49,212 nucleotides of DNA. Source: Patescibacteria group bacterium. Lineage in GTDB: Bacteria; Patescibacteriota; Patescibacteriia; UBA2196. The stretch is from contig JAQTPI010000002.1 of the NCBI GenBank assembly GCA_028748975.1, positions 1-49,212 on the forward strand, in the 5' to 3' direction. Both the position numbers and the translations under genes were made by a program. This document shows, in pieces, positions 18,422-43,327 of this stretch; the stretch's first letter is position 1; each line of letters begins with the position of its first letter. A model generated the notes under the pieces. That model was not told the DNA's origin. It worked only from the letters and a program-made list of their open reading frames with translations, and made no database searches.

Positions 18422-18428
18422 TTATCGC

Positions 18429-21174: not shown

Positions 21175-21297
21175 CTGTAGCCTCCTTTTTGGTTAAATTG
21201 TTTTTTTTCTTGTAATTTAAGCGTAGCATGAGGCGAAAAGAGAGTCAAGTGGTAATTTTGTTTTTATGCTTTAATGCTAACATGCTAAAATGTTTTT

Positions 21298-21996
21298 ATG
21301 CTTCAACCAAATCCAGGCAAGAATTTAGAAATAGAAGTTAGGGGCAAGGTTTTTTGGCGTTATCCGATTAAGACAAAAATTATTACCAAAGATGATAAAT
21401 TGGAAGATGTAATTAAAGAATATGTGATGCCGCATTATGAAAAAGGGGATATTGTAGCGATGTCAGAAAGAATGGTGGCAGTGACGCAGGGAAGATTAAT
21501 CCATGAAAGTGAAATCAAGGCAAGCGGACTCGCAAAGTTTTTGGTGAAGTTTGTAAAAAAATGGCCCAATGACCCGGGTTTTCGGAATGCCAAAAAAATG
21601 CAGGTGGCGATTAATATGATTGGGGTGCCGCGCATGCTTTTGGCGGCATTTGTTTCGGCCATAACCAAGCCATTTGGCATTCGCGGTTTATTTTATAGAA
21701 TTTGCGGACATGGAGTTTCGGAAATTGATGGCTTTGCGCCGGGCACAATTCCACCGTATGACCAATACGCGGTTTTGGGGCCGGAAAATCCGCGCGGAGT
21801 TTGTAATAATTTGGCAAAAAAATTCGGCGTGGAAGCGGTGATTGTGGATGCCAATAATATTGACGTGGCAATACTCGGCACGAGCGATAATTTATCAATC
21901 ATGCCAGCTGAATTTCGTTTGGCTTTTTTGGATAATCCGATTGGGCAGGGCTTGGAGCAAACGCCGATTTGTATAGTCAGAAGGAAAATTGTATAA
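21298..21996 (+). CDS. F420-0:gamma-glutamyl ligase (CofE)-like domain protein
   Basis: YPIKTKII, AMSERMVAVTQGR, IVDANNI, IGQGLEQTP motifs. Confidence 0.75.
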   Translation: MLQPNPGKNLEIEVRGKVFWRYPIKTKIITKDDKLEDVIKEYVMPHYEKGDIVAMSERMVAVTQGRLIHESEIKASGLAKFLVKFVKKWPNDPGFRNAKKMQVAINMIGVPRMLLAAFVSAITKPFGIRGLFYRICGHGVSEIDGFAPGTIPPYDQYAVLGPENPRGVCNNLAKKFGVEAVIVDANNIDVAILGTSDNLSIMPAEFRLAFLDNPIGQGLEQTPICIVRRKIV

Positions 21997-22216: not shown

Positions 22217-22423
22217 TTATTTTTTGTTTCCAGACGGACCAAATATGCTTCGGCCGAATACGTCCTTGTGTTTAGACAGACCAAATATAGATCCGGCTAA
22301 AATGAAAAATAAGCCGGCCAGGCCAGTATTTTTTTGTATTAACATAAAACCACCGAGTACAAGAAATAAAGACGTGAGAGCGTTGGCAATATTAGAAAGG
22401 TTTTTGTCTGCATTTTGTGCCAC
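22217..22423 (-). CDS. Small two-TM protein, 68 aa
   Basis: AAGGAGG SD, GTG start, own promoter at 22462-22504. Confidence 0.62.
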   Translation of the reverse strand: MAQNADKNLSNIANALTSLFLVLGGFMLIQKNTGLAGLFFILAGSIFGLSKHKDVFGRSIFGPSGNKK

Positions 22424-22511
22424 GGTGCCTCCTTTTTAGATTAAATTGTTAGTTTCTTTATTTGTAATTTAAGCGTAGCATGAGGTGAAAAAGGAGTCAA
22501 GTGGAATTTAT

Positions 22512-22737
22512 GCTACTTTCTTTAGACAAAGAAAGTAGCTGAAAGAAACTGGCTCGCGAGCTGCGCGTTAGAGAAAATCAGGCTCGCCGTCGCTAATTTC
22601 CGAACTCGGTCCGATTCTGTCGTCTGCTGACTCCAGAATTGAGACCTCAAACAGGCGGAAATTTTCTTAACTGCGGTCAAGAACCGCTCCTGCTCGCCTT
22701 GATTTTCTAACTAACGCTCCGCTAAGCTCGCGCTGAC
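22512..22737. ncRNA. ~225-nt structured repeat, copy 1 (ncRNA or MITE-like element)
   Basis: Aligns with 36740-36965; nested stems with compensatory changes; transcription not shown. Confidence 0.55.
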
Positions 22738-22800
22738 CAAATCACAATAATCACAAGATGATTATTAGAAATTGAAAATTGAAAATTACAAATTAACTTT

Positions 22801-24807
22801 ATGGACAACTCCACCCTCAAAAAACTCATGGAAGAAGGGGAAGAGCTTTTGGACGAAGTGCAGGAAGATAAAGAATTGAAACAAATCCGACAGCATCCGT
22901 TTAAAAAGATGTGGGTTTTGCCGTTGATTATTTTTATCGTGGTCGTGGCACTCTTAGGCTTTGGCTATGTAAAATATTGGCTGCCGTTTAATTCCATCAT
23001 GAGCCAGTCAAACAAAGCGCAAGCGTCATTTCAATTGGCGCAGAAATATTTATTGCAGGGAGAATTTAAAGGCGCTTCTGACCAGTTGGAGCAAGCTGGC
23101 GTGGCTCTTAAGGCGGTAGAAAAGGGGATTGACGCTCTTGGTATGATGGCGCGGTTTGGACCTTTGGAAAAACAAAGGCAGGCCTTGAAAGCTATTGCGG
23201 TTTCCGGGCAAAATTTAAGTTCGGGACTGCGCCTAGTGACCAATTTGACCAATCAAATTATGCTGCCACTCGTGGGGCCGCAGAGCAAGAAATTCAGCGA
23301 CCTAACCGCGGCGGAAAAAAGAAATATTTTGAAAAAAGTTTATGAAGCGGCGCCAGATATTCAGGGCGCCAAAGCAGAGGTGGAATTGGCTAAATTACAG
23401 ATGGACCAAATTGACACCGAGGGGTTGCATCCGACGCTTTTGAGTTATGTCAAAGATTTGCGCACTAAACTTAATGAGGTAGATTTAATGTTAAGCCAGG
23501 CAGCGGTGATGGCGCGGACCGTGCCGACATTACTTGGTTATCCAGGCGAAAAGATATATTTGTTTTTATTGCAAAATAATGATGAACTGCGGCCGACGGG
23601 CGGATTCATCGGCACGGTGGGCATTGCCAAAATCAAAGACGCGGAAGTGGTTTCTTTTGAAACCAGAAATGTTTATGAAATGGACGTGAACGCGGAGAAA
23701 ATTGAAAAAATTACGCCGCCAAACCCGATTGCCAAATATTTGAAAGTTAAGGGCTGGTATTTGCGCGACGCCAATTGGTCGCCGGATTTTCCAACAGCCG
23801 TCAATCAGATTGAAAAACTTTTTCAGCGCGAAGCGCGATTGTCCGGCAGTCCTTTTTCGCCGCAGAATTTGGATGGCGTGATCGCCATTACGCCTAATAT
23901 GCTGGAAGATTTTCTAAAAGTTTCCGGCGCCATTGAAATTCGTGGTTTTGTTTTCAGCAGTGAAAATTTTACCGAACGTTTGGAATACTTGGTGGAAGTT
24001 GGTTATGATAAAATTGGCGAATCATACAGCACGCGCAAAAACATTATTGGGCTTTTGGGCTTGGAAATGATCAAGCGCTTCCAAAATTTGAAGATGGATC
24101 AATGGGTGGAACTCTTTGGAATTTTACAAAAAAATTTAAGCGAAAAACAAATGCTTTTGTCTTTTCACGACCCTCTTTTACAAGAAGAAATTAATCGGCA
24201 GAATTGGGGCGGGGAAGTGAGAAACACACCAATGGATTATTTTATGTTTATTGATGCCAATTTGGCGGCTTTAAAAACCGACCAATATGTGAAACGCGCT
24301 GTCAGTTATCAAATTGGCTTTAATAATAAAGGTGATTTAATTGCGCGGGCGTCCATGAATTATAATAACTTCGGAACTTTCACTTGGAAATCAACCCGTT
24401 ACCGGACTTATACCAGATTGTATGTGCCTGAGGGCTCAAAATTAATTAAAACCGAAGGATCAATGGCGGCGGACAAGTCCGTTACCGCGGGCAAAACCGA
24501 TGTTTATAATGAATTGGGAAAAACGGTTTTTGGCGCTTTCATTTCCATTGAACCGGGCGCAAGCGGTACTCTGACTTTTGAATATCAATTGCCGGAGCGC
24601 CTGAAAGAATTAATTTTGGACGGACATTACAGCTTACTGGCGCAAAAGCAGGCCGGCACTACTGGCCATGGTTTGGTTTTGAATTTGGTTTTCCCAAATA
24701 AAATTAAAGACGCCGTGCCGGCGGAAGCCAAAACAGAGTGGGGAAACAATTCCTATAAATTAACGACGGATTTGAGTATTGATCGAGAAATAAAAATAAA
24801 TTTTTAA
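22801..24807 (+). CDS. DUF4012-type membrane-anchored protein
   Basis: LLQNNDELRPTGGFIG, RDANWSPDFP, DANLAALKTD motifs. Confidence 0.85.
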   Translation: MDNSTLKKLMEEGEELLDEVQEDKELKQIRQHPFKKMWVLPLIIFIVVVALLGFGYVKYWLPFNSIMSQSNKAQASFQLAQKYLLQGEFKGASDQLEQAGVALKAVEKGIDALGMMARFGPLEKQRQALKAIAVSGQNLSSGLRLVTNLTNQIMLPLVGPQSKKFSDLTAAEKRNILKKVYEAAPDIQGAKAEVELAKLQMDQIDTEGLHPTLLSYVKDLRTKLNEVDLMLSQAAVMARTVPTLLGYPGEKIYLFLLQNNDELRPTGGFIGTVGIAKIKDAEVVSFETRNVYEMDVNAEKIEKITPPNPIAKYLKVKGWYLRDANWSPDFPTAVNQIEKLFQREARLSGSPFSPQNLDGVIAITPNMLEDFLKVSGAIEIRGFVFSSENFTERLEYLVEVGYDKIGESYSTRKNIIGLLGLEMIKRFQNLKMDQWVELFGILQKNLSEKQMLLSFHDPLLQEEINRQNWGGEVRNTPMDYFMFIDANLAALKTDQYVKRAVSYQIGFNNKGDLIARASMNYNNFGTFTWKSTRYRTYTRLYVPEGSKLIKTEGSMAADKSVTAGKTDVYNELGKTVFGAFISIEPGASGTLTFEYQLPERLKELILDGHYSLLAQKQAGTTGHGLVLNLVFPNKIKDAVPAEAKTEWGNNSYKLTTDLSIDREIKINF

Positions 24808-24880
24808 GAAGTGAGGAAAATATAGAAAATAAAAATACCCAGCTGATGATAAAGCTGGGTATTTGGTTATGAAAATGTTT

Positions 24881-25054
24881 TTATTCTTTTTTTGTCAATT
24901 CAACACTTAGATCGGATTTGGAAAAATGAAGTTTCCAAAGAGTATACATACAAAGAAAAAGTAGAACTAAACCGAACCAAGATTCGGCGGCCGAAAGAAT
25001 GATGCCGACAGGCAAAGCCAAGCAGGCGAGAACGAGCAGGAGTCTTTTAATCAT
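24881..25054 (-). CDS. Small two-TM protein, 57 aa
   Basis: ATG at 25054 overlaps the upstream stop. Confidence 0.55.
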   Translation of the reverse strand: MIKRLLLVLACLALPVGIILSAAESWFGLVLLFLCMYTLWKLHFSKSDLSVELTKKE

Positions 25055-25328
25055 TTTTGTATCTTTTGATTGGGTTTGGTAAAAAAATATCAGAACCACC
25101 CAAGACACAGGTTATAAATAATAAGACAAGAGTTAGTGCCAGATAGCCCATTCTTTCCCCTGGTTTAAAGGCGATAAAGACAAGGGAAGCAATCGTTAAA
25201 ATACCGGAAAACGCAGTGATGATGATACCTAATTTGGTTCTTTTTCTTAGCCATTCAACTCTTCTTACCTCTTTTATTTTTTTCTCGGGCAGGTTTATTT
25301 CCCGCATTCTTTCTTCAATGTTTTTCAT
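25047..25328 (-). CDS. Small membrane protein, 93 aa
   Basis: AAGGAGG SD, two TM segments. Confidence 0.68.
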   Translation of the reverse strand: MKNIEERMREINLPEKKIKEVRRVEWLRKRTKLGIIITAFSGILTIASLVFIAFKPGERMGYLALTLVLLFITCVLGGSDIFLPNPIKRYKND

Positions 25329-25339
25329 TTTTTCCTCCT

Positions 25340-25504
25340 TTAAAAAGTAATTTGTTTGGCTGTGGCAAAAAAATTTTCAAGCGCTTTTCCGCAGATAAGG
25401 CCCGCGATAATCCCCAATGGCCAGAAGGTGGCTAAAAGGATAAGGGTGGCTGGTAATGACAATAAAATAATCAGAGCGCAGATGAGTTGCTTGGTTGTAA
25501 ACAT
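25340..25504 (-). CDS. Small hydrophobic protein, 54 aa (not in ORF track)
   Basis: AGGAG SD; MFTTKQLICALIILL...; stop abuts the SD of the next gene. Confidence 0.55.
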   Translation of the reverse strand: MFTTKQLICALIILLSLPATLILLATFWPLGIIAGLICGKALENFFATAKQITF

Positions 25505-25642
25505 GTTTTTCTCCTATTTTTAATTTTTAAGGTGCAATTATTGATAAATTAATCTTAAATCTAAAAAGTTTTTTAGTCAAATTTTCAGTTAAATAAAAAA
25601 CCAACCAGCTTACTTGGAAGCGGTTGGTTGGAGTGTGCGTTT

Positions 25643-25819
25643 TCATTGATTGTGCCAGGAAGGCGGATCAAAAGCGTCCACCCAACAAAGATATTTGTCG
25701 CCAAATTTACGTATGGCTTGGAAGATTTTTTCTTCCCAACGAGTTCTTTTTTGTCCTCGCAGGTCGAGCGCGGGATAAGCGGCCATTAGGATGAAAATCG
25801 TTATTATCAGGATGTTCAC
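25643..25819 (-). CDS. Small protein, ~58 aa (not in ORF track)
   Basis: AGGAGG upstream, GTG/TTG start, N-terminal hydrophobic helix; upstream TTGACA-17-TAAATT (25899-25871). Confidence 0.45.
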   Translation of the reverse strand: MNILIITIFILMAAYPALDLRGQKRTRWEEKIFQAIRKFGDKYLCWVDAFDPPSWHNQ

Positions 25820-25946
25820 CAAGGTTCTCGTGTTTTCCTCCTTTTGATATGATGTTTTTTGATCAAATTAAATTTATACCCAAACTAAAAAAATGTCAAA
25901 TTTAAGTGGATAAGTGAAGTGTGGTATAATATAGATAATAAATATT

Positions 25947-26957
25947 ATGTGGTTTACTCCCAAAATTATTAAAAAAATTGAGAAAGCGGGCTTAATCGGC
26001 CGCGGGTGCAACAACTTTCCCGTGGCGAGAAAATGGGAAGCAGTAAGAAAGGCCCGGGGCAAAGAGAAGTTTGTGATCTGCAATATTTCCGAGTCCGAAC
26101 CCGGGGTTTTTAAGGACCGCCATATTTTGCGCCATCACCCAGAAAGAGTAATTGACGGCATGATTTTGGCTATGGATACTGTTGGCGCGAAAAATGGATT
26201 TATTTATTTAAATCCGGAATATTTTACCGAATTTAATGCCAAACTGCGAGAAATAATTGATTTGAAAATCGGTGGAATCGGCATGATTGAACTTTTTGAA
26301 AAACCTTTTCACGACTACATCGGCGGGGATGAAACCGCGCTTTTGAATTCGCTGGAAGGCAAGCGGGTGGAGCCGAGATTGAAACCGCCCTATCCGGTGA
26401 ATTTTGGTTTGGAGGGCAAACCCACCTTGATTAATAATTGTGAAACTTTTTATGCCATAAGTTTGATTGCTGAAAACAAATACAAAAATACCAAATTTTA
26501 TTCTCTGTCCGGCGCGGGCGTGGAAACAGCGGTAAAAGAATTGCCGGTGGACATTACTGTTAAAAAAATGCTCCAGGAATTCGACCACGAGCCGAGTGAA
26601 AAATATTTCTATCAAGTCGGCGGAGGAGCGGCTGGCACTTGCTATAATTTCAAGCAATTGAATAGAAAATTTGACGGCTTGGCTTCAGTTATAATTTATA
26701 GTATGGAAGAATCGCCTAAAAATGTGGTGATGAAGTGGCTGAATTTTTTTGAAGACGAATCCTGCGGACAGTGCGTGCCCTGCCGCGAAGGAACCTATCG
26801 TTTGAGGAATTTGATGAGAAAATATTTTGAAACAGAAAATTTAGATAAAGAAATTTTTGACGATTTGGTTTTCACTTTGGAAAATACTTCCTTTTGCGCG
26901 TTGGGCAAAGTTTCCACCAATGCGGTTTTGAGTTATTTGAAAAACGTGAGGAAATAA
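25947..26957 (+). CDS. NuoF/HydB-like FMN/NADH-binding subunit (short form)
   Basis: GRGCNNFP, NISESEPG, YIGGDETALLNSLEG, ESCGQCVPCREG...SFCALG (one 4Fe-4S). Confidence 0.88.
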   Translation: MWFTPKIIKKIEKAGLIGRGCNNFPVARKWEAVRKARGKEKFVICNISESEPGVFKDRHILRHHPERVIDGMILAMDTVGAKNGFIYLNPEYFTEFNAKLREIIDLKIGGIGMIELFEKPFHDYIGGDETALLNSLEGKRVEPRLKPPYPVNFGLEGKPTLINNCETFYAISLIAENKYKNTKFYSLSGAGVETAVKELPVDITVKKMLQEFDHEPSEKYFYQVGGGAAGTCYNFKQLNRKFDGLASVIIYSMEESPKNVVMKWLNFFEDESCGQCVPCREGTYRLRNLMRKYFETENLDKEIFDDLVFTLENTSFCALGKVSTNAVLSYLKNVRK

Positions 26958-26968
26958 AAAACTGTCTC

Positions 26969-27127
26969 CTATGAGACAGTTTCCGCCGGACAGTTTGTTG
27001 CCATCCATGTGATGAGAAGAGGGGATGTTCCCACGACGAACGGGGCGGCCGCTCCTTTTGTAAGAATTAACAGGCCCCATACGGCGATGGCTGTGACCCA
27101 GACTGCAACCTTTTCTCTTGTTTTCAT
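26969..27127 (-). CDS. Small membrane peptide, 52 aa
   Basis: AAGGAG SD, TTGACA-17-TATACT promoter (27190-27162). Confidence 0.55.
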   Translation of the reverse strand: MKTREKVAVWVTAIAVWGLLILTKGAAAPFVVGTSPLLITWMATNCPAETVS

Positions 27128-27294
27128 TTTTGTTTTTCTCCTTGTTTGTGATTGTGTGTTTAGTATATCATATTTAAAAATTATTGTCAAGCGATTTTTG
27201 GGGATAATTTTCGGAAAATGCCAAATTTTGGCTAAGATTAGCGGAAATTTAGCCACGAATTAATGCGAATTTAGGGCGAATTTTGCGAATAATT

Positions 27295-27410
27295 ACAACC
27301 CCTCTGTTCCGCTGTTGCGGAACACCTCCCCTTCGAAAGGGGAGGATAGCGACGCGGTTATCCCCTCCTTTCGAAGGAGGGGTGGCCGATAGCAATCGGC
27401 CGGGGTGGTT
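27295..27410. repeat. Pair of oppositely oriented CCCCTCC-family elements
   Basis: 27295-27348 and 27358-27410; similar pair at 42304-42427. Confidence 0.85.
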
Positions 27411-27463
27411 GTAATTTGCGTAAAATCGCGTATAAACTCGCGTGGAATCGCGATTATAAAGAA

Positions 27464-29407
27464 ATGAAAAAAATAAAATTCACAATCAACGGCAAAGAAT
27501 ATTTCGCGAAAAAAGGCGAGACGGTTTTGGATGTGGCTTTGCGCGAAAAAATTGAAATTCCACATTTGTGCAAGCATCCGGATCTGAAAATCAAAGGCAA
27601 CTGCCGGATGTGCTTGGTGGAGGCAGGCGGCCAAATTACCACCGCTTGTTCCACCGAAGTTCTGCCCGATTTGACAATCAAAACCAACACTAAAGAAGTG
27701 GAGCGCGGACGAAAAATAAATTTGGAATTGATTTTTTCCGAACACATTGAAAAATGTCCGACCTGCCTTTACCAAGACAATTGCACAATTTTAAAATATG
27801 CCGCCAAATATAATGTAAAAATCGCGCGGTTTGAAGACCGCAAGAAAAATTTTCCGGTTTGGCAGTTTTCCGATTCCATCCAATTTGATTCTTCCAAATG
27901 TATTGATTGCCGCAATTGCGAAGAGGTTTGCCGCGAAAAACAAGCGTGCAGTTTTTATGAAATTACGGAAGATAAGGGGGAAGACCAAATTATAAAACCC
28001 AAAGGGGAAGCAAACGGAAATCAGAAATTAGAAACCAGAAATCAGGGGGTAGACTTGTTAAAAAACGATCCGAATAAATTTGACTGCACCTATTGCGGGC
28101 AGTGCGTGACGCATTGTCCGGTCGGCGCCATTGCCGGTGTGTCGCACTGGCAGGCAGTGGAAAAATTATTACAAAATAAAAATGGCAAGGTTTTGATAGC
28201 GGAAATCGCGCCGTCAATTCGTGTTTCCATTGGCGAAGAATTCGGACAAGATTACGGCAAAATTATGACGGGACAATTGGCCGCTTCCATGAAAGCGCTT
28301 GGTTTTGATTATGCTTTTGATGTTAATTTGGGCGCGGATTTTACCACCTATGAAGAAGCTAAAGAATTGGTTAAATGGATTACCGAAGATAAACCGCGGC
28401 CGATGTTCACTTCCTGCTGTCCAGCTTGGGTGAAATTCGTGGAATTTTTCTATCCCGAATTTATTTCGCATTTAACTTCTGCCAATTCCCCTCACATGTG
28501 TTCCGGCCCGGTGATTAAAACTTTTTTTGCCGATTATTTGAAAAAAGACCCGCGCGATATTGAAATTGTTTCCATTATGCCTTGTACTTCCAAAAAACAC
28601 GAAATTGGTTTAGAAAAGCATCGAATTGATTTGGGCTGGTGTCTGGAACGGCTGGACTTGCCAAATATCGCCAGTGTTTGCCAAAGCCGCGGCGGATTGG
28701 CGGGGATTAAAGTGCCGGCGGTGGACCATATTTTGACCACGCGCGAATACGCATTTCTTTTGCATAAAAATAAAATTGATTTGCCAAATTTGAAACCAAT
28801 TGATTTGGACAGGCCACTCGGCGTGTCTTCCGGCGCCGGCGCGATTTATGGCGCTTCGGGCGGGGTCATGGAGTCCGCGCTCCGCAGCGCCGATTATTTT
28901 TTCCGTGTTTTAGACGAAACCGGTTCACTTGACCCGGTCATTAAGGGTGAAAATTATAAATTAAAGAAGAAAAGATTTTCTAAAATTTCTCAAAGCCGGA
29001 TTGAATTCAGAGAAGCGCGGGGACAGGCGGGAATTAAAACCGCACGCGTGAAAGTTGGGGGCAGAAAGTTAAATATCGCGGTGGCCAATGGCTTGGGTAA
29101 TGCCAAGAAAATTTTGGAAGATTTGAAAGCCGGCCGCGTCAAATATGATTATGTGGAGGTGATGGCCTGTCCCGGCGGCTGTATTGGCGGCGGAGGACAG
29201 CCGATTCCGACCAACGCGGAAATCAGAGCGAAGCGAGCGGCGGCTTTATATGAAATTGATAAAAATTTGCCAGTGCGCACGGCGCATGAAAATCCCAGTG
29301 TTTTGGAGGTTTATAACAAATATTTCAAAGGCGATGAAGAATTAATTGAGCATGTTTTGCATTCTAAGTTTAAAGTAAAGGAGCGCGAAGGTTACAAAGA
29401 GGTGTAG
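27464..29407 (+). CDS. hydA: [FeFe]-hydrogenase catalytic subunit (group A, M3-type architecture)
   Basis: 2Fe-2S (HLC..GNCRMC..TAC), HxxxCxxCxxxxxC, two 4Fe-4S (CIDCRNC, CTYCGQC), H-cluster motifs TSCCPAW, MPCTSKKHE, EVMACPGGCIGG; start moved to ATG at 27464. Confidence 0.93.
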   Translation: MKKIKFTINGKEYFAKKGETVLDVALREKIEIPHLCKHPDLKIKGNCRMCLVEAGGQITTACSTEVLPDLTIKTNTKEVERGRKINLELIFSEHIEKCPTCLYQDNCTILKYAAKYNVKIARFEDRKKNFPVWQFSDSIQFDSSKCIDCRNCEEVCREKQACSFYEITEDKGEDQIIKPKGEANGNQKLETRNQGVDLLKNDPNKFDCTYCGQCVTHCPVGAIAGVSHWQAVEKLLQNKNGKVLIAEIAPSIRVSIGEEFGQDYGKIMTGQLAASMKALGFDYAFDVNLGADFTTYEEAKELVKWITEDKPRPMFTSCCPAWVKFVEFFYPEFISHLTSANSPHMCSGPVIKTFFADYLKKDPRDIEIVSIMPCTSKKHEIGLEKHRIDLGWCLERLDLPNIASVCQSRGGLAGIKVPAVDHILTTREYAFLLHKNKIDLPNLKPIDLDRPLGVSSGAGAIYGASGGVMESALRSADYFFRVLDETGSLDPVIKGENYKLKKKRFSKISQSRIEFREARGQAGIKTARVKVGGRKLNIAVANGLGNAKKILEDLKAGRVKYDYVEVMACPGGCIGGGGQPIPTNAEIRAKRAAALYEIDKNLPVRTAHENPSVLEVYNKYFKGDEELIEHVLHSKFKVKEREGYKEV

Positions 29408-29571
29408 CCAGTGGTTTATCCCGAGCGATCCAAAGTACTTGGGGGAGCCGAGGGATCTCGGTTGAAGGTAATAAGTAACTAGTAATAAGTAATAAGGGCG
29501 ACAAAAAAATAAAATCGCCCCAGTTTGCAACTGAAGCGATAAGAGCGAATGTTTTTTGTAGTTTTGAAAAA

Positions 29572-29766
29572 TTAGGTTTCTAATACTTCGGTCGCACAAT
29601 GAGTACAATATTTGTCTTCGGGTCTTAATTCTTTTCCGCAAGTTTTACATTTTGGATAAATTATTTCTTTAAGCCTTCTGCCACAGCGATTACAGAAAAT
29701 AGCACCAAGACCAAATAACGTATCGCCATACCTTGTGCAAGCTCGATTTTCGCAAACTTTTGACAT
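29572..29766 (-). CDS. Double zinc-ribbon protein, 64 aa
   Basis: Four Cys pairs; GGGAG SD. Confidence 0.7.
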   Translation of the reverse strand: MSKVCENRACTRYGDTLFGLGAIFCNRCGRRLKEIIYPKCKTCGKELRPEDKYCTHCATEVLET

Positions 29767-29857
29767 TCCTTTCTCCCTTTCTGACTTTTTAGGCCATTTT
29801 GTGTGATTTATGAAGGTTCGATAATTACAGACTAATTATAGCGCAGTTTAAAATTTT

Positions 29858-30448
29858 ATGTCAATAGCTACAACTTTATCCAAAATTCGAGTTGGTTATC
29901 TGATTAAATTTATTTTACTTCTGGCGCTGGCTACTGGCGCGCCGATTTTGGGGATTCATTCGCAGTGGCTTACCGGACCGATTGTTAATATGGCTTTAAT
30001 TTTAAGCGTGTTTTTGGTCGGCGTGCGCGGGGCGGTTTTAATCGGGCTTTTGCCTTCCACCATCGCACTTGGCACGGGACTTTTGCCAGCGGCGCTCGCA
30101 CCCATGGTGCCTTTTATTATTATTTCAAATATAATTTTAGTATTTTGTATTTCTTTTTTCCGTCATTCCGAGGGAGGTCCGATGAATATCGGACCGACCG
30201 ATGGAATCTCGGTTGAAGACCCCATCGCTTCGCTCGGGATGACGAATAAAAAATACTGGCTTGGTTTACTTTTTGCCGCCGGCCTGAAATTTCTTTTCCT
30301 TTTCCTAACTTCCGGTATCGTGATAAAATTACTGTTGAATCAAAAGCTCGCGCTCCCCGTGGCACAAATGATGAGCTGGCCCCAGTTTTATACCGCGCTT
30401 ATTGGTGGAATTTTAGCGTTTGTGGTTTTGAAAATTTTAAAAAAATAA
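29858..30448 (+). CDS. ECF transporter S-component-like membrane protein with an in-frame element insertion
   Basis: QWLTGPIVNMAL...PFIIISN...KF.FLF...QFYTALIGG pattern of S components. Confidence 0.75.
   Translation: MSIATTLSKIRVGYLIKFILLLALATGAPILGIHSQWLTGPIVNMALILSVFLVGVRGAVLIGLLPSTIALGTGLLPAALAPMVPFIIISNIILVFCISFFRHSEGGPMNIGPTDGISVEDPIASLGMTNKKYWLGLLFAAGLKFLFLFLTSGIVIKLLLNQKLALPVAQMMSWPQFYTALIGGILAFVVLKILKK
30161..30244. repeat. GTCAT...ATGAC element, 84 bp, in frame in the ECF S-component gene
   Basis: Translates as RHSEGGPMNIGPTDGISVEDPIASLGMT. Confidence 0.9.
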
Positions 30449-30514
30449 TCAAAATTCTAACTGCCTTTAGGCAAGGTTTTGACCTCCCCTAAAGGGGGTT
30501 AGAAATTAAATTCT

Positions 30515-30772
30515 ATGGACAAAAATCTCAAACTCCAAATTTTGGAGCAAATGTCTGGTCTTGTCACCGCCGGACTAGGGTTGGTGGCGGCTTTGGCCTG
30601 GAACGAAGCCATTAAGAAAATGTTTGAAAAAATCTTCGGCAGCCAGTCCAATTTAATCGCCATGTTCGGCTACGCGGTTTTGGTCACGGTTTTGGTGGTT
30701 ATACTTTCCATGCGCATTGGTAAATTGGTGGCGAAGTTGAAATCCACGAATAATGCTAATGAGGGCGAATAG
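30515..30772 (+). CDS. Small two-TM protein (DUF5654-like)
   Basis: LVTAGLGLVAALAWNEAI...YAVLVT motif. Confidence 0.75.
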   Translation: MDKNLKLQILEQMSGLVTAGLGLVAALAWNEAIKKMFEKIFGSQSNLIAMFGYAVLVTVLVVILSMRIGKLVAKLKSTNNANEGE

Positions 30773-30838
30773 CGCGAATTTTGAAGGAATAAAAAAACCG
30801 GAGTAAGGATGTCTCCGGTTATCAAAATGTTGTGTAAA

Positions 30839-31078
30839 TTATTTTATCCGCACTGCTTCTATTAAATTTTTAAAGCCATTTTTAATTTCAAGTTCGGTGA
30901 CTGCTGTTAATTTTGTAAAATTGCCTTCAAGACTGGCAGCAAGGGTGAGAATTGCCTGGGATAAAGCAAGGGTTGCCGTAACCTGAGCTCCGGGAAAATT
31001 TTCTTGTTCAAGTTCACGCAAGCATTGTTCCTGAGACTCTTTTGTTTGATTTTCATAGACACACGAAAAGCTTTTCAT
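30839..31078 (-). CDS. Hypothetical protein, 79 aa
   Basis: AAGGAG SD; promoter TTGACA-17-TATACT (31176-31148). Confidence 0.65.
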   Translation of the reverse strand: MKSFSCVYENQTKESQEQCLRELEQENFPGAQVTATLALSQAILTLAASLEGNFTKLTAVTELEIKNGFKNLIEAVRIK

Positions 31079-31169
31079 TTACAGCTCCTTCCTTTTTTGG
31101 CTCAATTGAGCCGTTATTGTGAGTTGTTTATATGGTTGTGATTTTTAAGTATAGCATGTTTAATTTTTT

Positions 31170-32450
31170 ATGTCAAATCCGAAAATTAAGTCCATAAAAG
31201 CAATTAAAAATCTGAAAAATAAAACAGTGCTTGTGCGCTGTGATTTTGATGTTCCGTTGAAACAACAAACAACAAACAACAAACAACAAACGACAAAAAA
31301 GTCGTCAGTTGTAAGTTGTAAGTTGTCGGTTGCTGACGACTCGCGGCTGCGGGCGGCAACTCCGACGATAAAATATCTTTTATCAAAAGGCGCGAGAGTG
31401 GTTTTGATGGGACACCTTGGCAGACCGGGCGGAGTGGTGAAAAAGGAATTGTCACTTTTGCCGGTGAAAAATCGATTGGGAAAATTACTTGGTGAGAAAA
31501 TAAGTTTTATATCTGACGAGATCCCATCGCTCGCTACGCTCGCTCGGGATGACGGTCGGTTGATAATGTTGGAAAATCTGCGCTTCAATCCCGGCGAGGA
31601 GAAAAATGACCCTAAATTTGCCAAGAAATTGGCGAAATTGGGCGATATTTATGTTAATGAGGCCTTTGCCGTCTCGCACCGAAGCGCGGCTTCGGTGGAC
31701 GCCATAAAAAAGTTTTTGCCATCTTATGCCGGTTTGAATTTGGAGCAGGAAATTTTACATCTGTCGGCGGTTCTAAACAAACCGCAAAAACCAATGGTGG
31801 CCATCATCGGCGGCGCGAAGATTGAAACTAAACTGCCAATGATCAAACAATTTTTGAAATCCGCGGATTACATTTTAATCGGCGGGGGAGTGGCGAATGA
31901 TTTTTTGAAAGCAAGGGGTTATGAGATTTATGGGTCGTTGGTGGACGATGATTATATAAATGAAGCCGGTAAAATATTAAAGAAATCAGAAATCGGAAAT
32001 CAGAAATCAGGAGAAGCAAAGTTAATTTTGCCAATAGATGTTGTTTGGTCTGACAATAAAATCAGGAGTTTATCCGCCGGAGCGTCTAAAGGGACGCCGG
32101 GGAGCGCAGGCGGAAAAACTCCAAAAATTTTGGATATCGGGCCGAAAACAATTTGGTTGTTTAGTGGTATAATTAAGAAAGCCAAGACGATTGTCTGGAA
32201 CGGTCCCATGGGCTATTTTGAAGACAAAAAATTTGCAACGGGCACAGAGAAAATAGCTGAAGTAATTTTGGCTAATAAAAAAGCGCAAAGAATAATTGGT
32301 GGTGGTGAAACAGGGGAAGTAATACAAAAAATAATCAGAAATCAGAAATCAGAAATTAGGAAAAATATTTTTATTTCCATTGGTGGTGGCGCCATGCTAG
32401 AGTATCTTGGAGGTAAAAAATTACCCGGATTGGATAAATTAATTAAATAG
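31170..32450 (+). CDS. pgk: Phosphoglycerate kinase (four repeat-derived segments)
   Basis: VRCDFDVP, HLGRP, LENLRF, GGAKIETK, WNGPMG, GGGET, SIGGGA. Confidence 0.96.
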   Translation: MSNPKIKSIKAIKNLKNKTVLVRCDFDVPLKQQTTNNKQQTTKKSSVVSCKLSVADDSRLRAATPTIKYLLSKGARVVLMGHLGRPGGVVKKELSLLPVKNRLGKLLGEKISFISDEIPSLATLARDDGRLIMLENLRFNPGEEKNDPKFAKKLAKLGDIYVNEAFAVSHRSAASVDAIKKFLPSYAGLNLEQEILHLSAVLNKPQKPMVAIIGGAKIETKLPMIKQFLKSADYILIGGGVANDFLKARGYEIYGSLVDDDYINEAGKILKKSEIGNQKSGEAKLILPIDVVWSDNKIRSLSAGASKGTPGSAGGKTPKILDIGPKTIWLFSGIIKKAKTIVWNGPMGYFEDKKFATGTEKIAEVILANKKAQRIIGGGETGEVIQKIIRNQKSEIRKNIFISIGGGAMLEYLGGKKLPGLDKLIK

Positions 32451-32453
32451 TTT

Positions 32454-32614
32454 TGTCATTCCGACCGAAGCCAGAACGATAGAGAGGGCGGAGTGCCCGC
32501 CCGAACGACTGACGTTGTTCAGTCGGGCGGGGAGGAATCCCTTATATTTCCCATATGAGATAGGCGAAGGGATCCCTTGGCTCTAAGCGACCCTAAAGGC
32601 CGTTCGGGATGACA
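32454..32614. repeat. GTCAT...ATGAC element carrying a nested 36-bp hairpin (32496-32531)
   Basis: TGTCATTCCG...CGGGATGACA termini; CCCGCCCGA...TCGGGCGGG inside the left arm. Confidence 0.88.
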
Positions 32615-32624
32615 ACTACTTTAT

Positions 32625-33914
32625 ATGAAAAAATTTGTTATAGAAAAAATCACCGCTCGTGAAATTCTTGATTCGCGCGGCAACCCGACAGTGGAAACCA
32701 CGGTGATTTTGGATTGCGGAATTAAGACTAAAGCCTCGGTGCCTTCCGGCGCTTCCACTGGGGAGCATGAAGCGTTTGAATTGCGCGATAATGACAAAAA
32801 AAGATACGGCGGATTGGGAGTTTTGAAAGCGTGCGCCAGCGTGGAAAAAATCAGCCGTAAATTAAAAGGCATGAATATTTTGGAGCAGAAAAAAATTGAC
32901 GAAGCCATGATTGAACTTGATGGTACGGATAATAAATCTAAATTCGGCGCCAACGCAATCTTATCAGTATCATTGGCTTGCGCCCGCGCCGGAGCACTGG
33001 TGGCGGGAGTAGAACTTTATGAATATTTGCGGAAGATTTACGAATTACGAATTACGAATTACGAATTACCAATCCCAATGTTCAACATTTTTAACGGCGG
33101 CAAACACGCGGACACAAATTTGAATTTGCAGGAATTCATGATCGTGCCGATTGGCCTTAAGAATTTTTCCGAGCAACTTCGCGCGGGGGCGGAAATTTTT
33201 CATGCTTTGGGCGAGGTCTTGAAAAAAAACCATCTGGATACTGATGTGGGCAATGAGGGTGGTTACGCGCCAAACATTGATAACACTATGCAGGCGTTTG
33301 ATTTAATTATGGAAGCGATTGTAAAGGCCGGCTATAAACCTGGCGCGGAAGTGGCACTGGCGCTGGATGTGGGCGCTTCGGAATTATATGATGAAGAAAA
33401 ACGGCTTTATACTTTTGATTTAGATGATTATTATCTTATGGCTTCGCAATTAATTTCCCTTTATCGCGATTGGGCGACAAAATATCCGATTATTTCCATT
33501 GAAGACGGGCTCGCGGAAAATTCTTGGGAAGATTGGGAGGAATTGACCAAAGAATTTGCGCGTTTCAAACCGCACGCCAGTTTTGATAAAATGTTACTCG
33601 TGGGCGATGATTTTTTTACTACCAATGCCAAACGGCTGGAAGCCGGCGTAAAAAGAAGCGCGGGCAACGCGGTAATTTTGAAACCAAACCAGATTGGGAC
33701 TTTGTCAGAGGCGATTGAGTTTGCCAAAGTTGCCAGAGAAAATAATTATACGATTGTGGTGAGCCACCGTTCCGGTGAAACCTGCGATGATTTTATTGCG
33801 GATTTGGCGGTGGCGATTAGTTCTGAGTTTGTAAAATTCGGGTCGCTGTCGAGGGGGGAGAGGGTAACGAAGTATAATCGGCTGTTGGAGATTTTTTCAG
33901 TAGTGTTATTCTGA
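32625..33914 (+). CDS. eno: Enolase
   Basis: REILDSRGNPTVE, VPSGASTG, ILKPNQIG, SHRSGET; stop supplied by an element half. Confidence 0.97.
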   Translation: MKKFVIEKITAREILDSRGNPTVETTVILDCGIKTKASVPSGASTGEHEAFELRDNDKKRYGGLGVLKACASVEKISRKLKGMNILEQKKIDEAMIELDGTDNKSKFGANAILSVSLACARAGALVAGVELYEYLRKIYELRITNYELPIPMFNIFNGGKHADTNLNLQEFMIVPIGLKNFSEQLRAGAEIFHALGEVLKKNHLDTDVGNEGGYAPNIDNTMQAFDLIMEAIVKAGYKPGAEVALALDVGASELYDEEKRLYTFDLDDYYLMASQLISLYRDWATKYPIISIEDGLAENSWEDWEELTKEFARFKPHASFDKMLLVGDDFFTTNAKRLEAGVKRSAGNAVILKPNQIGTLSEAIEFAKVARENNYTIVVSHRSGETCDDFIADLAVAISSEFVKFGSLSRGERVTKYNRLLEIFSVVLF

Positions 33915-34046
33915 TCCGCCGGCTAGCGGAGAAGGATTTCGGAAAAAATCAAATAGAATAATTCAATAATCTAATAAAAATATTTTCGCCGCCAGGCGAT
34001 TTTATTTTTTCTATAAATATCACGATCGTGGTATACGTGGAAAAAT

Positions 34047-34088
34047 AAAATTATACAAAACGTGCGACCGTACGTTTTGTATAATTTT
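34047..34088. repeat. AT-rich inverted repeat with 17-bp arms
   Basis: AAAATTATACAAAACGT-GCGACCGT-ACGTTTTGTATAATTTT. Confidence 0.8.
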
Positions 34089-34156
34089 TATAAAATAAAT
34101 AATAAAATAAAAAGCCGCCGAGCGCGAAGCGCTCGGCGGAGGTGTTATAAACGTGA

Positions 34157-34648
34157 TCAACTGTATTCCGGGTGGAAGATGTATCCGAAATGTGGAAATT
34201 TGATTGCTTTTTCCACAATCGCTTCTTTCCACCATTCCAGATTGTCGCTTTCCCGTCCTTCTTTGACCCAATGGTTATGGATGATTAAAAACATGTTGAC
34301 TGTCCGGAAACAATTGAGAGTCGCTTCCAGAGCAATAACCATCTTTTTGTGCCCCTTTTTACGCTGGAAAACAATTTCTTGCTCCAGCGTCGCTATCTTC
34401 CCTTTAACCAGGAAGGGCGATCCCTTTACCGGCGCGATGTATTTTTCCACCACCGCATGGACGATTAATTTTTCATCGTCCGAAAGAACCGGTTCGGATT
34501 TTTGGCCGGCACGCGAGTGGGCGAGAATCAATATCTCCGTTTCCATGTTGCTTTTTTCGCGTTCCATCTTTTGTGACGCTACGATGCCCAGATTTTTCGG
34601 CAGTTTATCTTTTACTGCCGCAAATGCTTCGGCCAGATCTCCGGCCAT
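34157..34648 (-). CDS. Hypothetical protein, 163 aa
   Basis: AAGGAGG SD; downstream GC-rich hairpin at ~34113-34140. Confidence 0.75.
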   Translation of the reverse strand: MAGDLAEAFAAVKDKLPKNLGIVASQKMEREKSNMETEILILAHSRAGQKSEPVLSDDEKLIVHAVVEKYIAPVKGSPFLVKGKIATLEQEIVFQRKKGHKKMVIALEATLNCFRTVNMFLIIHNHWVKEGRESDNLEWWKEAIVEKAIKFPHFGYIFHPEYS

Positions 34649-34663
34649 GGTTTTTCCTCCTTT

Positions 34664-34837
34664 TTATTCGGTTTCATGGTTTGGTGAAGTTTCTTGGGCG
34701 ATGAGATACAACATGTTAAATTCATCGCTGCCTGGTTGGGGTTGTGCCGTTTCCGGCTGTTGTTCAACCACTTCTCGCATTTTAGGCGGAAGCTTGTCAG
34801 AGACTTTTTGCAGAGCTTCAGCTAGAGCTGAATTCAT
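34664..34837 (-). CDS. Small protein, 57 aa (not in ORF track)
   Basis: TAAGGAG SD; MNSALAEALQKVSDKLPP resembles the N-terminus of the next gene; promoter at 34916-34889. Confidence 0.62.
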   Translation of the reverse strand: MNSALAEALQKVSDKLPPKMREVVEQQPETAQPQPGSDEFNMLYLIAQETSPNHETE

Positions 34838-35000
34838 GATTTTCTCCTTAATTTAGATGATTTTAGGTTTAAAAGAACCAATTAATTCATTATAGCAAAA
34901 CCACAGATTTTGTCAAGTGGATAACTTTTATGATATTTTTTTGGATTTTCTATTTTCATTTGAGCGTGCTATAATTAAAGGAAGAAAATAACACAAAATT

Positions 35001-36668
35001 ATGAAGAAAAAAATAAAAGACAAAAATAACCACCCCTCCGCCAGCTGGCGGACCCTCTCCTTAAAAAGGAGAGGAGGAAAAAAGCAGCCGCCGGTAGTTT
35101 TGGCGATTTTGGATGGCTGGGGAATTAATCATGATTACATTGGTAACGCCATTACGCGCGCCAAAACCCCGACCTATAAAATGCTTTTGGAGAAATTTCC
35201 CAATACCAAACTGCGCGCTTCGGGCCGAGCAGTTGGTTTGCCGCCAACTCAAGACGGCAATTCGGAAGCAGGGCACCTGAATTTGGGCGCTGGTCGGGTG
35301 GTGGAGCAGGATACGGTCATTATCTCAAAATTGATTACCGCCGGAACTTTTTTTAAGAATCCGGCACTGAAAGCGAGCATCAAACAGGTGAAAAAGTATA
35401 AAAGCAAGGTCCATCTCATGGGCTTGCTTTCGGGCTGGGAATCCGCCCATACTGACCCTGATCATCTTTTGGCGCTGTTAACTTTTTATCGCCAAGAAGG
35501 AATAAAAAAGGTTTATTTGCATCTTTTCACCGATGGTCGCGATTCTTTTCAATATGGCGCCTTAAAATTTTTAAAACAATTAGAAAATGAATTTAAAGAC
35601 GGGGAGGTGATCGCGAGCGTCACGGGCCGTTATTACGCCATGGACCGGACGAAAAAATGGGAACGCACGGAGGCGGCTTACAATGCGCTGGTTTTGGGCA
35701 AAGGGCAATATTATGCCAAAAGCGCGGAAGAAGCCATCAAACGGGCCTATGACCGCGACGAGACCGATGAATTCATTTTGCCGACCGTGATTGTTAAAGA
35801 TGGCAAATGTGACAAAAGAGGAATTTGCATCAGCGGCGAACCAATCGCCAAAATCGAAGACAATGACGCGGTGGTGTTTTTCAATTTGCGGTCCGACCGT
35901 TCGCGGCAATTGTCCAAAGTTTTTGTCCAAAAGAATTTTAATGATCTGAACCCCGGTGCTTTCAAACGCACCAAGGTTTTGAAGAATTTACTTTTTGTTG
36001 CCATGACTGATTTTGGCCCGGATTTGGACACCATTCTTTCTATTTCACCCTCGCAGGATGTTAAAGAAACTTTGCCCATGGCGCTGACTGGTTTGCGCCA
36101 GCTCTACATCGCGGAGACGGAAAAATATGTTCACGTGACTTATTTCTTTAATGGTGGTTATGCCGAACCGGTTAACAAGGAAGAACGTTTAATGGTATCC
36201 TCGCCCGATGTTTCTTCTTATGATAAAATACCAGAAATGTCAGCTAAAGAAATTACCGATATAATTTTAAATGATTTGAAGAATAATAAATATGATTTCA
36301 TTTTGGTAAATTATGCCAACCCCGATATGGTTGGCCACACCGGCAATTTGGCTGCCGGGATTAAAGCCTGCGGCTTTGTTGATGGTTGTTTAGGGAAACT
36401 TTATGAAGAAATTAAAAATAAAAAAGGGATGCTTTTGGTGGTGGCGGACCATGGCAACGCGGAAGAAATGATTGATGAAAAAACCGGCGAGATTGATACC
36501 CAGCACTCCTCTTATCCGGTGCCGTTTATTATTGCTGATCTGCGTGATGGCGTGAAAAGATATAAATTAAGAAAGGATGGAATTTTGGGCAACGTGGCGC
36601 CGACAATTTTGGATTTGCTAAATAAAAAGAAACCAAAGGAAATGACGGAGGGTTCTTTGGTTTTGTAG
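35001..36668 (+). CDS. gpmI: 2,3-bisphosphoglycerate-independent phosphoglycerate mutase, copy 1
   Basis: ILDGWG, GNSEAGH, FTDGRD, GRYYAMDR, ETEKY, NPDMVGHTG, ADHGNAE. Confidence 0.95.
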   Translation: MKKKIKDKNNHPSASWRTLSLKRRGGKKQPPVVLAILDGWGINHDYIGNAITRAKTPTYKMLLEKFPNTKLRASGRAVGLPPTQDGNSEAGHLNLGAGRVVEQDTVIISKLITAGTFFKNPALKASIKQVKKYKSKVHLMGLLSGWESAHTDPDHLLALLTFYRQEGIKKVYLHLFTDGRDSFQYGALKFLKQLENEFKDGEVIASVTGRYYAMDRTKKWERTEAAYNALVLGKGQYYAKSAEEAIKRAYDRDETDEFILPTVIVKDGKCDKRGICISGEPIAKIEDNDAVVFFNLRSDRSRQLSKVFVQKNFNDLNPGAFKRTKVLKNLLFVAMTDFGPDLDTILSISPSQDVKETLPMALTGLRQLYIAETEKYVHVTYFFNGGYAEPVNKEERLMVSSPDVSSYDKIPEMSAKEITDIILNDLKNNKYDFILVNYANPDMVGHTGNLAAGIKACGFVDGCLGKLYEEIKNKKGMLLVVADHGNAEEMIDEKTGEIDTQHSSYPVPFIIADLRDGVKRYKLRKDGILGNVAPTILDLLNKKKPKEMTEGSLVL

Positions 36669-36739
36669 TTTTTCTTTCGCCACCTTTTTTAGTAAAAGGT
36701 GGCGCCAAAAAGCGCCGCCAGCAAAAAAGTGATTCCTAC

Positions 36740-36965
36740 GCCACTTTCTTTGGACAAAGAAAGTGGCTGAAAGAAACTGGCGAGCGAGCTGCGCGTTAGA
36801 GAAAATCTAAGGCTCGCCCTCGCTAATTTCCGAACTCAGCCGAAGAGAATAATCTGCTGATTATTCTTTCGGCTTCAAACAGGCGGAAATTTTTTCTACT
36901 GCGGTAGAAAACCGCTCCGTCTCGCCTTGATTTTCTTGCTAACGCTCCGCTAGGCTCGCAGCTAC
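36740..36965. ncRNA. ~225-nt structured repeat, copy 2, preceded by an extra P1-like hairpin at 36679-36712
   Basis: Aligns with 22512-22737. Confidence 0.55.
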
Positions 36966-37030
36966 GAAGTCGCAATAATCGCAGTAATTCCTTGAGTTTT
37001 GTTTTAATGCTTTAATGTTAAAATGCTAAT

Positions 37031-43227: not shown

Positions 43228-43327
43228 TTAAAGTAATAAATAATAAAGATATAAGGAAATAAGGATATAAAAGGCTGGTCGCCTATATCTTTATATCTCT
43301 ATATCCTTATATCTTTTTCATAAAATA

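Follow-up and report, generated by a model that had tools for sequence, protein, structure and literature searches.

A folded, mobile-like intergenic element of Candidate Phyla Radiation bacteria that fits no named repeat or RNA family

Structured intergenic repeats and orphan non-coding RNAs (ncRNAs) are known kinds of bacterial sequence. The Correia (NEMIS) elements of Neisseria, ERIC/IRU of enterobacteria and BOX/RUP of pneumococci are structured intergenic repeats, or elements resembling miniature inverted-repeat transposable elements (MITEs), for which no cognate transposase is known, and integron attC sites, REP/RAYT systems and elements derived from IS200/IS605 are mobile DNA recognised as folded single strands. 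Here I discuss an element found in 49,212 nt of DNA (the window, meaning the whole stretch analysed; contig JAQTPI010000002.1 of assembly GCA_028748975.1) from a Patescibacteria group bacterium of the Candidate Phyla Radiation (CPR), where it occurs as two non-coding copies of ~245 nt each, at 22512-22757 and 36740-36985, both on the plus strand. It fits no named family, and it differs from the closest ones in what is conserved and in where its repeats are placed. The reading that I favour, with a probability of roughly 0.4, is a non-autonomous mobile element whose folded single strand is recognised by an enzyme that another part of the genome encodes; this reading covers both a transposon-like distribution and an RNA-like constraint, a pair that is not usually joined.

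The two copies align end to end, as the preliminary description of the locus (made from the letters alone) had reported, with 44 of 228 columns differing, 21 of them within the 39 columns of a single apical hairpin, P4, and identity is 46% inside P4 and 88% elsewhere. Homology between the copies reaches ~20 nt beyond the 3' limits first given for them, to ~22757 and ~36985; it begins at a 5' hairpin, P1, and stops after the second of two tandem 9-mers, and the inverted repeat that forms the long stem P2 is therefore internal to the unit. The overall fold consists of P1, a linker and the ~30-bp stem P2 closed by a three-way junction. Two parts leave this junction: the side hairpin P5, and an arm in which P3 is followed by an internal loop (asymmetric, 5/9 nt) and the variable hairpin P4. 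Minimum free energy (MFE) folds have z-scores of -6.85 (copy 1) and -6.74 (copy 2) relative to dinucleotide shuffles, none of 200 shuffles being equally stable, and folding with DNA parameters is equally good (z = -6.79). The pairings pointed out in the preliminary description were all recovered: the nested stem segments GCGAGC/GCTCGC, GCGTTAG/CTAACGC, AGAAAATC/GATTTTCT and AATTTCCG/CGGAAATT are seen in the MFE folds, P1 is perfectly paired in both copies across a T-A to C-G double change, P4 pairs in each copy around a conserved loop (TCTGCTGA) in spite of its divergence, P5 covaries, and the extra P1-like hairpin upstream of copy 2 lies at 36678-36704 as a perfect 11-bp stem, CGCCACCTTTT..AAAAGGTGGCG. 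Junctions and loops are ~94% identical between the window copies and better conserved than the P4 and P5 stems, a pattern characteristic of nucleic acids that work in the folded state. The window holds only these two copies, a search with the covariance model R1 included, and no conserved open reading frame (ORF) lies in the element.

A third member extends the family to another lineage. An exact pattern built from the conserved junction, fixing 23 nt of the 33-nt core (P3 plus the internal loop), gave four matches in JGI metagenomes, one a true member (L005) and three due to chance in GC-rich coding or unrelated DNA; the L005 sequence recurs in 11 contigs, for example on the minus strand of L018 at 9746-9964, and the L018 host is a CPR bacterium distant from the window organism (the HIT proteins of the two share 47% identity). 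The L018 member keeps the P1, linker, P2, P3, P4 and P5 architecture with a fold z-score of -6.26: the first 8 nt of its P1 hairpin, GCUACUUU, are the same as in copy 1, its P2 is ~33 bp long, AT-rich and wholly unlike the window copies in sequence, its P3 and both internal-loop strands (J3/4 and J4/3) are as in the window, its P4 is different, and its P5 is a small hairpin of 4 bp. R1, which was built from the two window copies only, scores this member at 54 bits (E ~1e-13), which validates the homology and shows the detection reach of the model. Because the two lineages share a conserved P1 base (GCYACUUU/AAAGURGC), P2 base and core, the whole unit is one homologous element and not something assembled twice.

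Covariation was counted in a model-derived alignment of the three members (A5), which is fitted to the structure, and there 97.5% of 201 pair cells are standard pairs and 27 of 69 pairs are altered on both sides, compared with 8.8 ± 2.5 in column shuffles (0/500 reach 27) and only 1-6 after a shift of the 3' partners by 1-3 columns. The doubly changed pairs comprise all 10 modelled pairs of P4, 10 of 28 in P2, 4 of 12 in P1 and 2 of 8 in P5, with none in P3. Together with the conservation of loops above stems, these counts support the earlier proposal that selection acts on single-stranded structure, and the element is defined by the fold of one strand, not by terminal inverted repeats. The 33-nt core, whose internal-loop strands read AACUC/UCAAACAGG in RNA letters, is identical in all three members; 23 of its nucleotides were imposed by the search pattern (9 of 14 in the 5' half, 14 of 19 in the 3' half), and the 10 positions left free also match. 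Outside the core, three direct-repeat relations persist while their letters change from one lineage to the other. The 3' arm of P1 recurs in the linker (window copies AAAGAAAGU / AAAGAAACU, L018 CAAAAGU / CAAAAGC), which permits an alternative pairing with the P1 5' arm; the junction strands J2/3 and J5/2 share a motif (GCUCGCC for the window copies, UUCGUCUU / UUCGACUU for L018); and the tail has its tandem 9-mers. An alternative hairpin overlapping P5, GCGGT/ACCGC, occurs in the window copies only.

Each of the three sites is filled by the element in one lineage only, and the orthologous spacers, usually tight operon junctions, are empty or otherwise filled in relatives at all three loci; the preliminary description had proposed a look for empty sites. 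At the copy 2 site, the spacer between the two iPGM genes is 5 nt in L009-L016 (iPGM 72% identical) and 26 nt in L017 (68%), and in L007/L008 (89%) it is filled by a different palindromic repeat. At the copy 1 site, an F420-ligase-like gene overlaps the DUF4012 gene in L029 (DUF4012 66% identical), and in L028 (86%) the 57 nt upstream of DUF4012 are unrelated to the element tail; copy 1 itself fits exactly into the interval from the end of a 61-nt promoter block to the 8-mer repeats that precede the start codon, and a paralogous block at 21200-21260 has no element between the same two features. As for the L018 member, its relatives L053, L055 and L058 (HIT 68-70% identical) have 13-17 nt between PMT_2 and HIT. 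This is mobility-like insertion polymorphism, and in the favoured reading the element moves, or has moved, from one intergenic spacer to another.

Several observations concern the same spacers. The promoter, leader and ribosome-binding site (RBS) block is duplicated at 21200-21260 and 22452-22512, extending ~90 nt toward the starts of minus-strand ORFs; on the minus strand it reads TTGACT, 17 nt, TACGCT and then AAAGGAGG, it precedes two unrelated small minus-strand ORFs (20923-21174 and 22217-22423), and together with copy 1 it makes up a ~800-nt lineage-specific insert between genes that overlap in L029. The tandem iPGM paralogues (35001-36668 and 37031-38617) are diverged, and the pair is adjacent in the CPR relatives L009 and L017 too. 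In L009, small free-standing GIY-YIG ORFs (86 amino acids; 86-346 and 5837-6097) lie in spacers of the same glycolysis cluster (72% relative), another sign that these spacers serve as landing sites for selfish elements.

What happens at the ends of the element is less regular. An imperfect direct repeat flanks copy 2 (AAGTGATTCCT on the left, CAGTAATTCCT on the right at 36982-36992), matching at 9 of 11 positions, and 15 of 500 shuffles are as good, making it marginal and a lead only, and at copy 1 and L018 no flanking repeat is better than in shuffles. The left flank of copy 1, which was there before the element, likewise has AAGTGGAATTT, a possible hint of a target preference and again a lead only. 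The 9-mer duplication reported earlier is present, in copy 1 at 22740-22748 and 22749-22757 (AATCACAAT AATCACAAG) and in copy 2 at 36968-36985 (AGTCGCAAT AATCGCAGT), with an A to G difference between the copies found in both 9-mer units; as a target-site duplication it does not stand, being a tandem repeat within the conserved 3' tail.

The family is rare and patchy, since searches with the pattern, with R1 and against phage and plasmid collections gave no more members. The exact core pattern has 0 matches in GTDB representatives and 0 in IMG/VR, and a relaxed pattern gave 21 GTDB matches (185,579 species representatives) and 2 viral ones, none with the P3/P4 architecture. Applied to ~270 kb made up of the window, relatives and other loci, ~130 kb of this being related DNA, R1 found no further member, and blastn found no match in the phage and plasmid collections. 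A stop-free antisense translation of copy 1 retrieved two low-complexity matches only from 1.8 billion proteins. Independent short-read (Logan) assemblies break inside both window copies.

In the favoured reading, the folded single strand would be the substrate of an enzyme acting in trans, the strand in question would be DNA rather than RNA, and the invariant P3/internal-loop core would be the site that the enzyme recognises and binds, a logic as in integron attC, REP/RAYT and IS200/IS605-derived elements and not as in transposons with terminal inverted repeats (TIRs). After insertion between co-transcribed genes, the element would be part of the operon transcript whichever way it points, and its long duplex would fold there too. 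The insertion polymorphism at 3/3 sites, the patchy distribution, the truncated 5' fragment beside copy 2 and the many other hairpin repeat families of the genome all speak for this reading, as do a structure kept under changed sequence, junctions and loops better conserved than stems, the equally good fold with DNA parameters, helices that are almost purely Watson-Crick and alike in stability on both strands, the differing orientation of the members, the lack of a shared promoter or terminator, the 9/11 repeat around copy 2 and the assembly breaks inside both window copies. Like the attC, REP and IS200/IS605 substrates, the element keeps structure and not sequence, places a variable terminal hairpin on a conserved unpaired spacer, lacks terminal inverted repeats and has little or no target duplication, and its P1 stem base reads CTAC...GTAG, as in GTAG-tagged REPs. 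However, it has neither the RYYYAAC/GTTRRRY boxes of attC (its stem base is GCGAGC/GCTCGC) nor an integrase or cassette array in the window, and unlike IS200/IS605 or REP it has a hairpin at the 5' end only and no constant 5' tetranucleotide (TTAT, CTAC and TTCT precede the three members); it is also larger, branched, and has its core distant from the ends.

A number of points weigh against this reading. The core is central, ~85-95 nt from either end, whereas the recognition hairpins of attC, REP and IS200/IS605 lie at cleavage sites, and there is no consistent target duplication or target motif over the three sites. The associated nuclease or transposase gene that the preliminary description had proposed to look for is missing: Pfam searches of ~40 ORFs of the 49-kb window gave housekeeping functions only, with no transposase, recombinase, reverse transcriptase, nuclease, Cas/Tas, HUH, Y1 or RAYT gene, and no transposase, recombinase, HUH or Y1 enzyme is encoded beside any copy, L018 included. 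A functional RNA would be expected to conserve features such as the three-way junction, the asymmetric internal loop and the possible alternative P1/linker pairing, z-scores are more extreme for the sense strand in two members out of three, and both window copies look maintained and not decaying. Finally, all inference draws on only three sequences from two lineages, and the invariance of the core, 23/33 nt of which the pattern demanded, is partly a matter of ascertainment.

The comparison with Correia, ERIC, BOX and RUP bears on whether this could instead be a classical MITE of the Correia/ERIC type, in which the P2 arms would be transposase-binding repeats and the covariation would be trivial, stemming from the need of both arms to match one transposase or from hairpin-templated repair of a quasi-palindrome. 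There is a partial likeness, since those elements are also 100-300 nt long, non-coding, found in same-operon spacers in either orientation, present or absent by strain, and folded into long imperfect hairpins when transcribed; Correia and ERIC elements occupy operon spacers, as this element does. An imperfect inverted repeat of ~30-35 bp, stems that are nearly all Watson-Crick, the 9/11 direct repeat around copy 2 and the small, repeated unit with empty sites in relatives are all compatible with a MITE, and it is this insertion polymorphism that survives from the MITE label offered in the preliminary description. The label itself fits only in part, because the inverted repeat is non-terminal and the target duplication is marginal and confined to one copy: 44 nt on the 5' side (P1 and linker) and ~25 nt on the 3' side, a separate hairpin and a non-palindromic tail, belong to the conserved unit, P1 is conserved even in the distant member, copy 1 and L018 have no target duplication better than in shuffles, and none of the TA type is seen. 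Moreover, in contrast to Correia and ERIC, it is the central asymmetric loop and junction that are conserved and the arms that have diverged, the reverse of a TIR element, the symmetry of the arms leaves the conserved side hairpin and asymmetric loop unexplained, and the known copy number is low. I therefore consider a classical MITE quite unlikely.

The main rival to a mobile element recognised as a folded strand is a family of structured ncRNA genes, acting in trans or processed from operon transcripts and scattered by duplication and horizontal transfer and not by transposition; in such an RNA, P2 would be a processing or closing stem, the P3/internal-loop core a protein- or RNA-binding site and P1 a protective 5' hairpin. 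The pattern of constraint is typical of functional RNAs, with near-identical junctions and loops beside P4 and P5 stems that change with compensation, an architecture kept in L018 although the stems share no sequence, and an element G+C of 48% compared with 40.5% for the window. Strand signals lean the same way in part: sense and antisense z-scores are -6.85/-5.16 for copy 1, -6.74/-6.95 for copy 2 and -6.26/-3.89 for L018, and the A5 alignment, which is biased toward the modelled strand, holds 8 G·U cells versus 1 A·C. However, the stems are almost purely Watson-Crick, per-helix folds contain 3 G·U pairs sense versus 2 antisense at nearly equal energies, and the whole-element MFE is slightly lower on the antisense strand; neither G·U content nor strand-specific stability tells RNA apart from single-stranded DNA. 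The members have no sigma-70-like promoter or intrinsic terminator in common, none at all was detected for copy 1 or copy 2, and the 10/12 sigma-70-like site ~25 nt upstream of the L018 P1, which could be counted for an RNA gene, is within shuffle expectation (3 found, 2.4 expected). The orientation to surrounding transcription also varies, the element is missing at orthologous sites in relatives with 66-89% protein identity and, by R1, in ~130 kb of related DNA, and no GTDB representative has a match.

Among known RNAs, the layout recalls 6S RNA (RF00013) in its ~185 nt from P2 base to P2 base, in the long but imperfect stem that closes the structure, in the open junction ('bubble'), rich in pyrimidines and with a small hairpin on its 3' strand, in the apical stem with an internal loop, and in having two paralogues in one genome. 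The present junction, by contrast, is three-way with a conserved side hairpin, in a layout otherwise compatible, and the additional 5' hairpin and the invariant core of 33 nt set the element apart from the sequence-poor 6S family; it is also non-syntenic and missing from close relatives and, by the core pattern, from GTDB representatives. As the preliminary description had expected, Rfam holds no such family: Rfam 15 at gathering thresholds gave 0 matches in the whole window, and at E ≤ 10 each member drew only unrelated microRNA, small nucleolar RNA and small RNA noise, differing per member and without 6S. A by-eye comparison, which is inference only, found no K-turn, loop E, tetraloop-receptor, hammerhead or box C/D motif in the core, and the searchable literature returned only unrelated primers for the core sequence and nothing relevant on CPR repeats or RNAs. 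What remains of the ncRNA label is the RNA-like constraint; it has no common promoter or terminator and no favoured strand behind it, and L018 lies antisense to its neighbours. An ncRNA family is a doubtful but serious possibility.

Orientation and gene context contradict a further reading, in which the element would be a cis-regulatory 5' leader such as a riboswitch, attenuator or thermometer acting on the gene that follows. In the window each copy points the same way as that gene (DUF4012 at 22801 for copy 1, iPGM at 37031 for copy 2), whose start codon lies 44-45 nt downstream, and the possible alternative pairings (P1 5' arm with linker, and P5 versus GCGGT/ACCGC) are of a kind that a leader might use. 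The claim that the element lies sense-upstream of a gene is thus correct for these two copies, but not as a rule: the L018 member is antisense to both its neighbours, PMT_2 and HIT, and faces the 3' end of a convergent gene, with no downstream gene on its own strand. Copy 2 is sense to both neighbours, and the upstream neighbour of copy 1, a small membrane ORF with its promoter block, is divergent. Orientation to the neighbouring genes is inconsistent, which effectively rules out a leader, and inside operons the element is transcribed either way round. The downstream genes are unrelated, their orthologues in relatives lack the element, there is no terminator or RBS-sequestering helix and no Rfam match, and I regard this explanation as highly improbable. 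The genes around are those of a CPR housekeeping stretch, in which every best homologue is from CPR, with glycolysis (including the two iPGM genes), FeFe hydrogenase, SecDF, a type IV pilus ATPase, ribosomal protein L9 and CTP synthase, and with no tRNA or transfer-messenger RNA genes.

Structured RNAs that travel with mobile elements offer a further comparison, as IS110 bridge RNAs, the omega RNAs of TnpB/IscB and TIGR arrays are likewise structured non-coding parts of mobile elements, ~150-250 nt long, with conserved loops beside variable segments. TIGR box C/D arrays are present in CPR (PMC12045711). Unlike these, no copy of the present element lies beside a recombinase, TnpB, IscB or Tas gene, and its variable segments are self-complementary stems, not loop guides. 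A TIGR box C/D array was considered and rejected: the CUGA motifs of the window copies are not kept in L018, and there is no array and no Nop-domain gene. One could also imagine a new class of mobile structured RNA, without a protein of its own, whose core would be catalytic or would recruit a host enzyme and which would enter CPR operon spacers by an RNA or folded single-strand intermediate. This would explain why the fold and the 33-nt core are kept while the location and the rest change, but I think it unlikely.

The J2/3-J5/2 repeat raises a last alternative, that of a functionless composite in which a P3-P4-P5 module became nested in the loop of an older hairpin by the replication or repair processes that make spacer palindromes. 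A direct repeat does flank P3-P4-P5 in both lineages (GCTCGCC / GCTCGCC and TTCGTCTT / TTCGACTT) and could be read as the target duplication of the nested module, removal of the module leaves a simple hairpin, and the window holds several other multi-hairpin repeat families with variously arranged modules. On the other hand, the P1 base, the P2 base and the core are conserved together across lineages, the junctions are more constrained than the stems, and a flanking repeat that is preserved as a repeat while its letters change implies constraint rather than the relic of an old duplication; a composite is accordingly very unlikely, and the folded mobile element stays the reading that I prefer.

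The features of the element and of the 8-nt-period repeats mentioned below are collected in the table.

Table 1. Positions of the features in the window. Feature coordinates come from the copy alignment and the consensus structure; those of copy 2 equal those of copy 1 + 14228, with small indels.
Feature	Position	Strand	Basis or remark
Copy 1, from P1 to the end of the conserved 3' tail	22512-22757	+	copy alignment; R1 273 bits; left edge is the end of the 61-nt block 22452-22512
Copy 2, between two tandem iPGM paralogues	36740-36985	+	copy alignment; R1 272 bits
P1, perfect 12-bp hairpin	22512-22539; copy 2 36740-36767	+	T-A to C-G double change between copies
Linker	22540-22555; copy 2 36768-36783	+	window copies identical except for the last two bases
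P2 5' arm of long stem	22556-22583; copy 2 36784-36813	+	folds; partner 22696-22731
J2/3, pyrimidine-rich junction strand with GCUCGCC-type motif	22584-22594; copy 2 36814-36824	+	consensus structure
Core 5' half: T, P3 5' strand AATTTCCG, J3/4 AACTC	22594-22607; copy 2 36824-36837	+	identical in 3/3 members
P3 5' strand	22595-22602	+	consensus structure
J3/4 (AACTC)	22603-22607	+	consensus structure
P4, fast-evolving apical hairpin	22608-22646; copy 2 36838-36874	+	pairs in both copies despite differing arms
Core 3' half: J4/3 TCAAACAGG, P3 3' strand CGGAAATT, TT	22647-22665; copy 2 36875-36893	+	identical in 3/3 members
J4/3 (TCAAACAGG)	22647-22655	+	consensus structure
P3 3' strand	22656-22663	+	consensus structure
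P5, side hairpin of the three-way junction	22664-22683; copy 2 36892-36911	+	copies differ by two double changes; copy 1 has one A·C mismatch
J5/2, junction strand	22684-22695; copy 2 36912-36923	+	consensus structure
P2 3' arm	22696-22731; copy 2 36924-36959	+	folds, covariation
Conserved 3' tail	22732-22757; copy 2 36960-36985	+	copy alignment
Truncated, diverged 5' fragment upstream of copy 2	36678-36727	+	P1-like hairpin 36678-36704 and linker-like stretch; R1 25.9 bits, weak
Left imperfect direct repeat flanking copy 2, AAGTGATTCCT	36727-36737	+	right partner CAGTAATTCCT at 36982-36992
8-nt-period repeats, first group	14638-14675, 21256-21301, 36997-37034, 44532-44569, 47381-47442		
8-nt-period repeats, second group	16087-16136, 27999-28048, 31964-32013, 32306-32355		
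8-nt-period repeats, third group	38691-38766, 43242-43321, 47221-47255		
8-nt-period repeats, fourth group	22763-22790		

The window is rich in other repeats. A second structured family, at 27293-27418 and 42302-42427 with a partial occurrence at 15735-15790, is built of ~56-nt units with two hairpins each (for example GTTCCGC..GCGGAAC and CCTCCCCTT..AAGGGGAGG), the inner hairpins covary between copies, and the units form inverted pairs, head-to-head or tail-to-tail, with a cruciform-like fold of -80 to -96 kcal/mol. A 54-nt direct repeat (13398-13451 and 14001-14054) holds a 17-bp perfect hairpin, ACCACTACGTTTTTCACG..CGTGAAAAACGTAGTGGT, whose base CTAC..GTAG resembles that of P1, and brackets an AT-rich ORF at 13437-14009 (190 amino acids, likely ATG at 13483) with a PaaX_M/Cas2-like domain, which looks like a cassette inserted between CTP synthase and the next gene. 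Clusters of short palindromes (GTCATCC..GGATC and GATTCC..GGAATGAC types) lie in spacers at 7520-7690, 15105-15132, 30216-30243 and 38123-38150 and in L007 at 1140-1350, and in L007, the 89% relative, one such repeat occupies the spacer equivalent to the copy 2 site. Tandem repeats with an 8-nt period (TTTAATGC-, AGAAATCA-, GATATAAG- and AAATTGAA-type) stand at or near many start codons, including those of both genes downstream of the element. Lastly, a 106-nt repeat, 96% identical between 17866-17971 and 18417-18522, covers upstream bases and the first ~75 nt of two adjacent ORFs beside type IV pilus genes; these ORFs (160 and 157 amino acids, no Pfam match) are probably paralogous pilin-like genes.

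The genomes of CPR/Patescibacteria are very small and streamlined, and little is known of either their ncRNAs or their mobile DNA. Here an element persists in two distant lineages, landing in tight operon junctions and constrained like a folded nucleic acid, unlike a transposon end. A role at the DNA level would point to structure-specific recombination or transposition in CPR of a kind not yet described, and a role at the RNA level would make the element an orphan structured RNA whose candidate binding site is sharply defined. In either case, R1 and the 33-nt core provide a concrete handle for wider searches.

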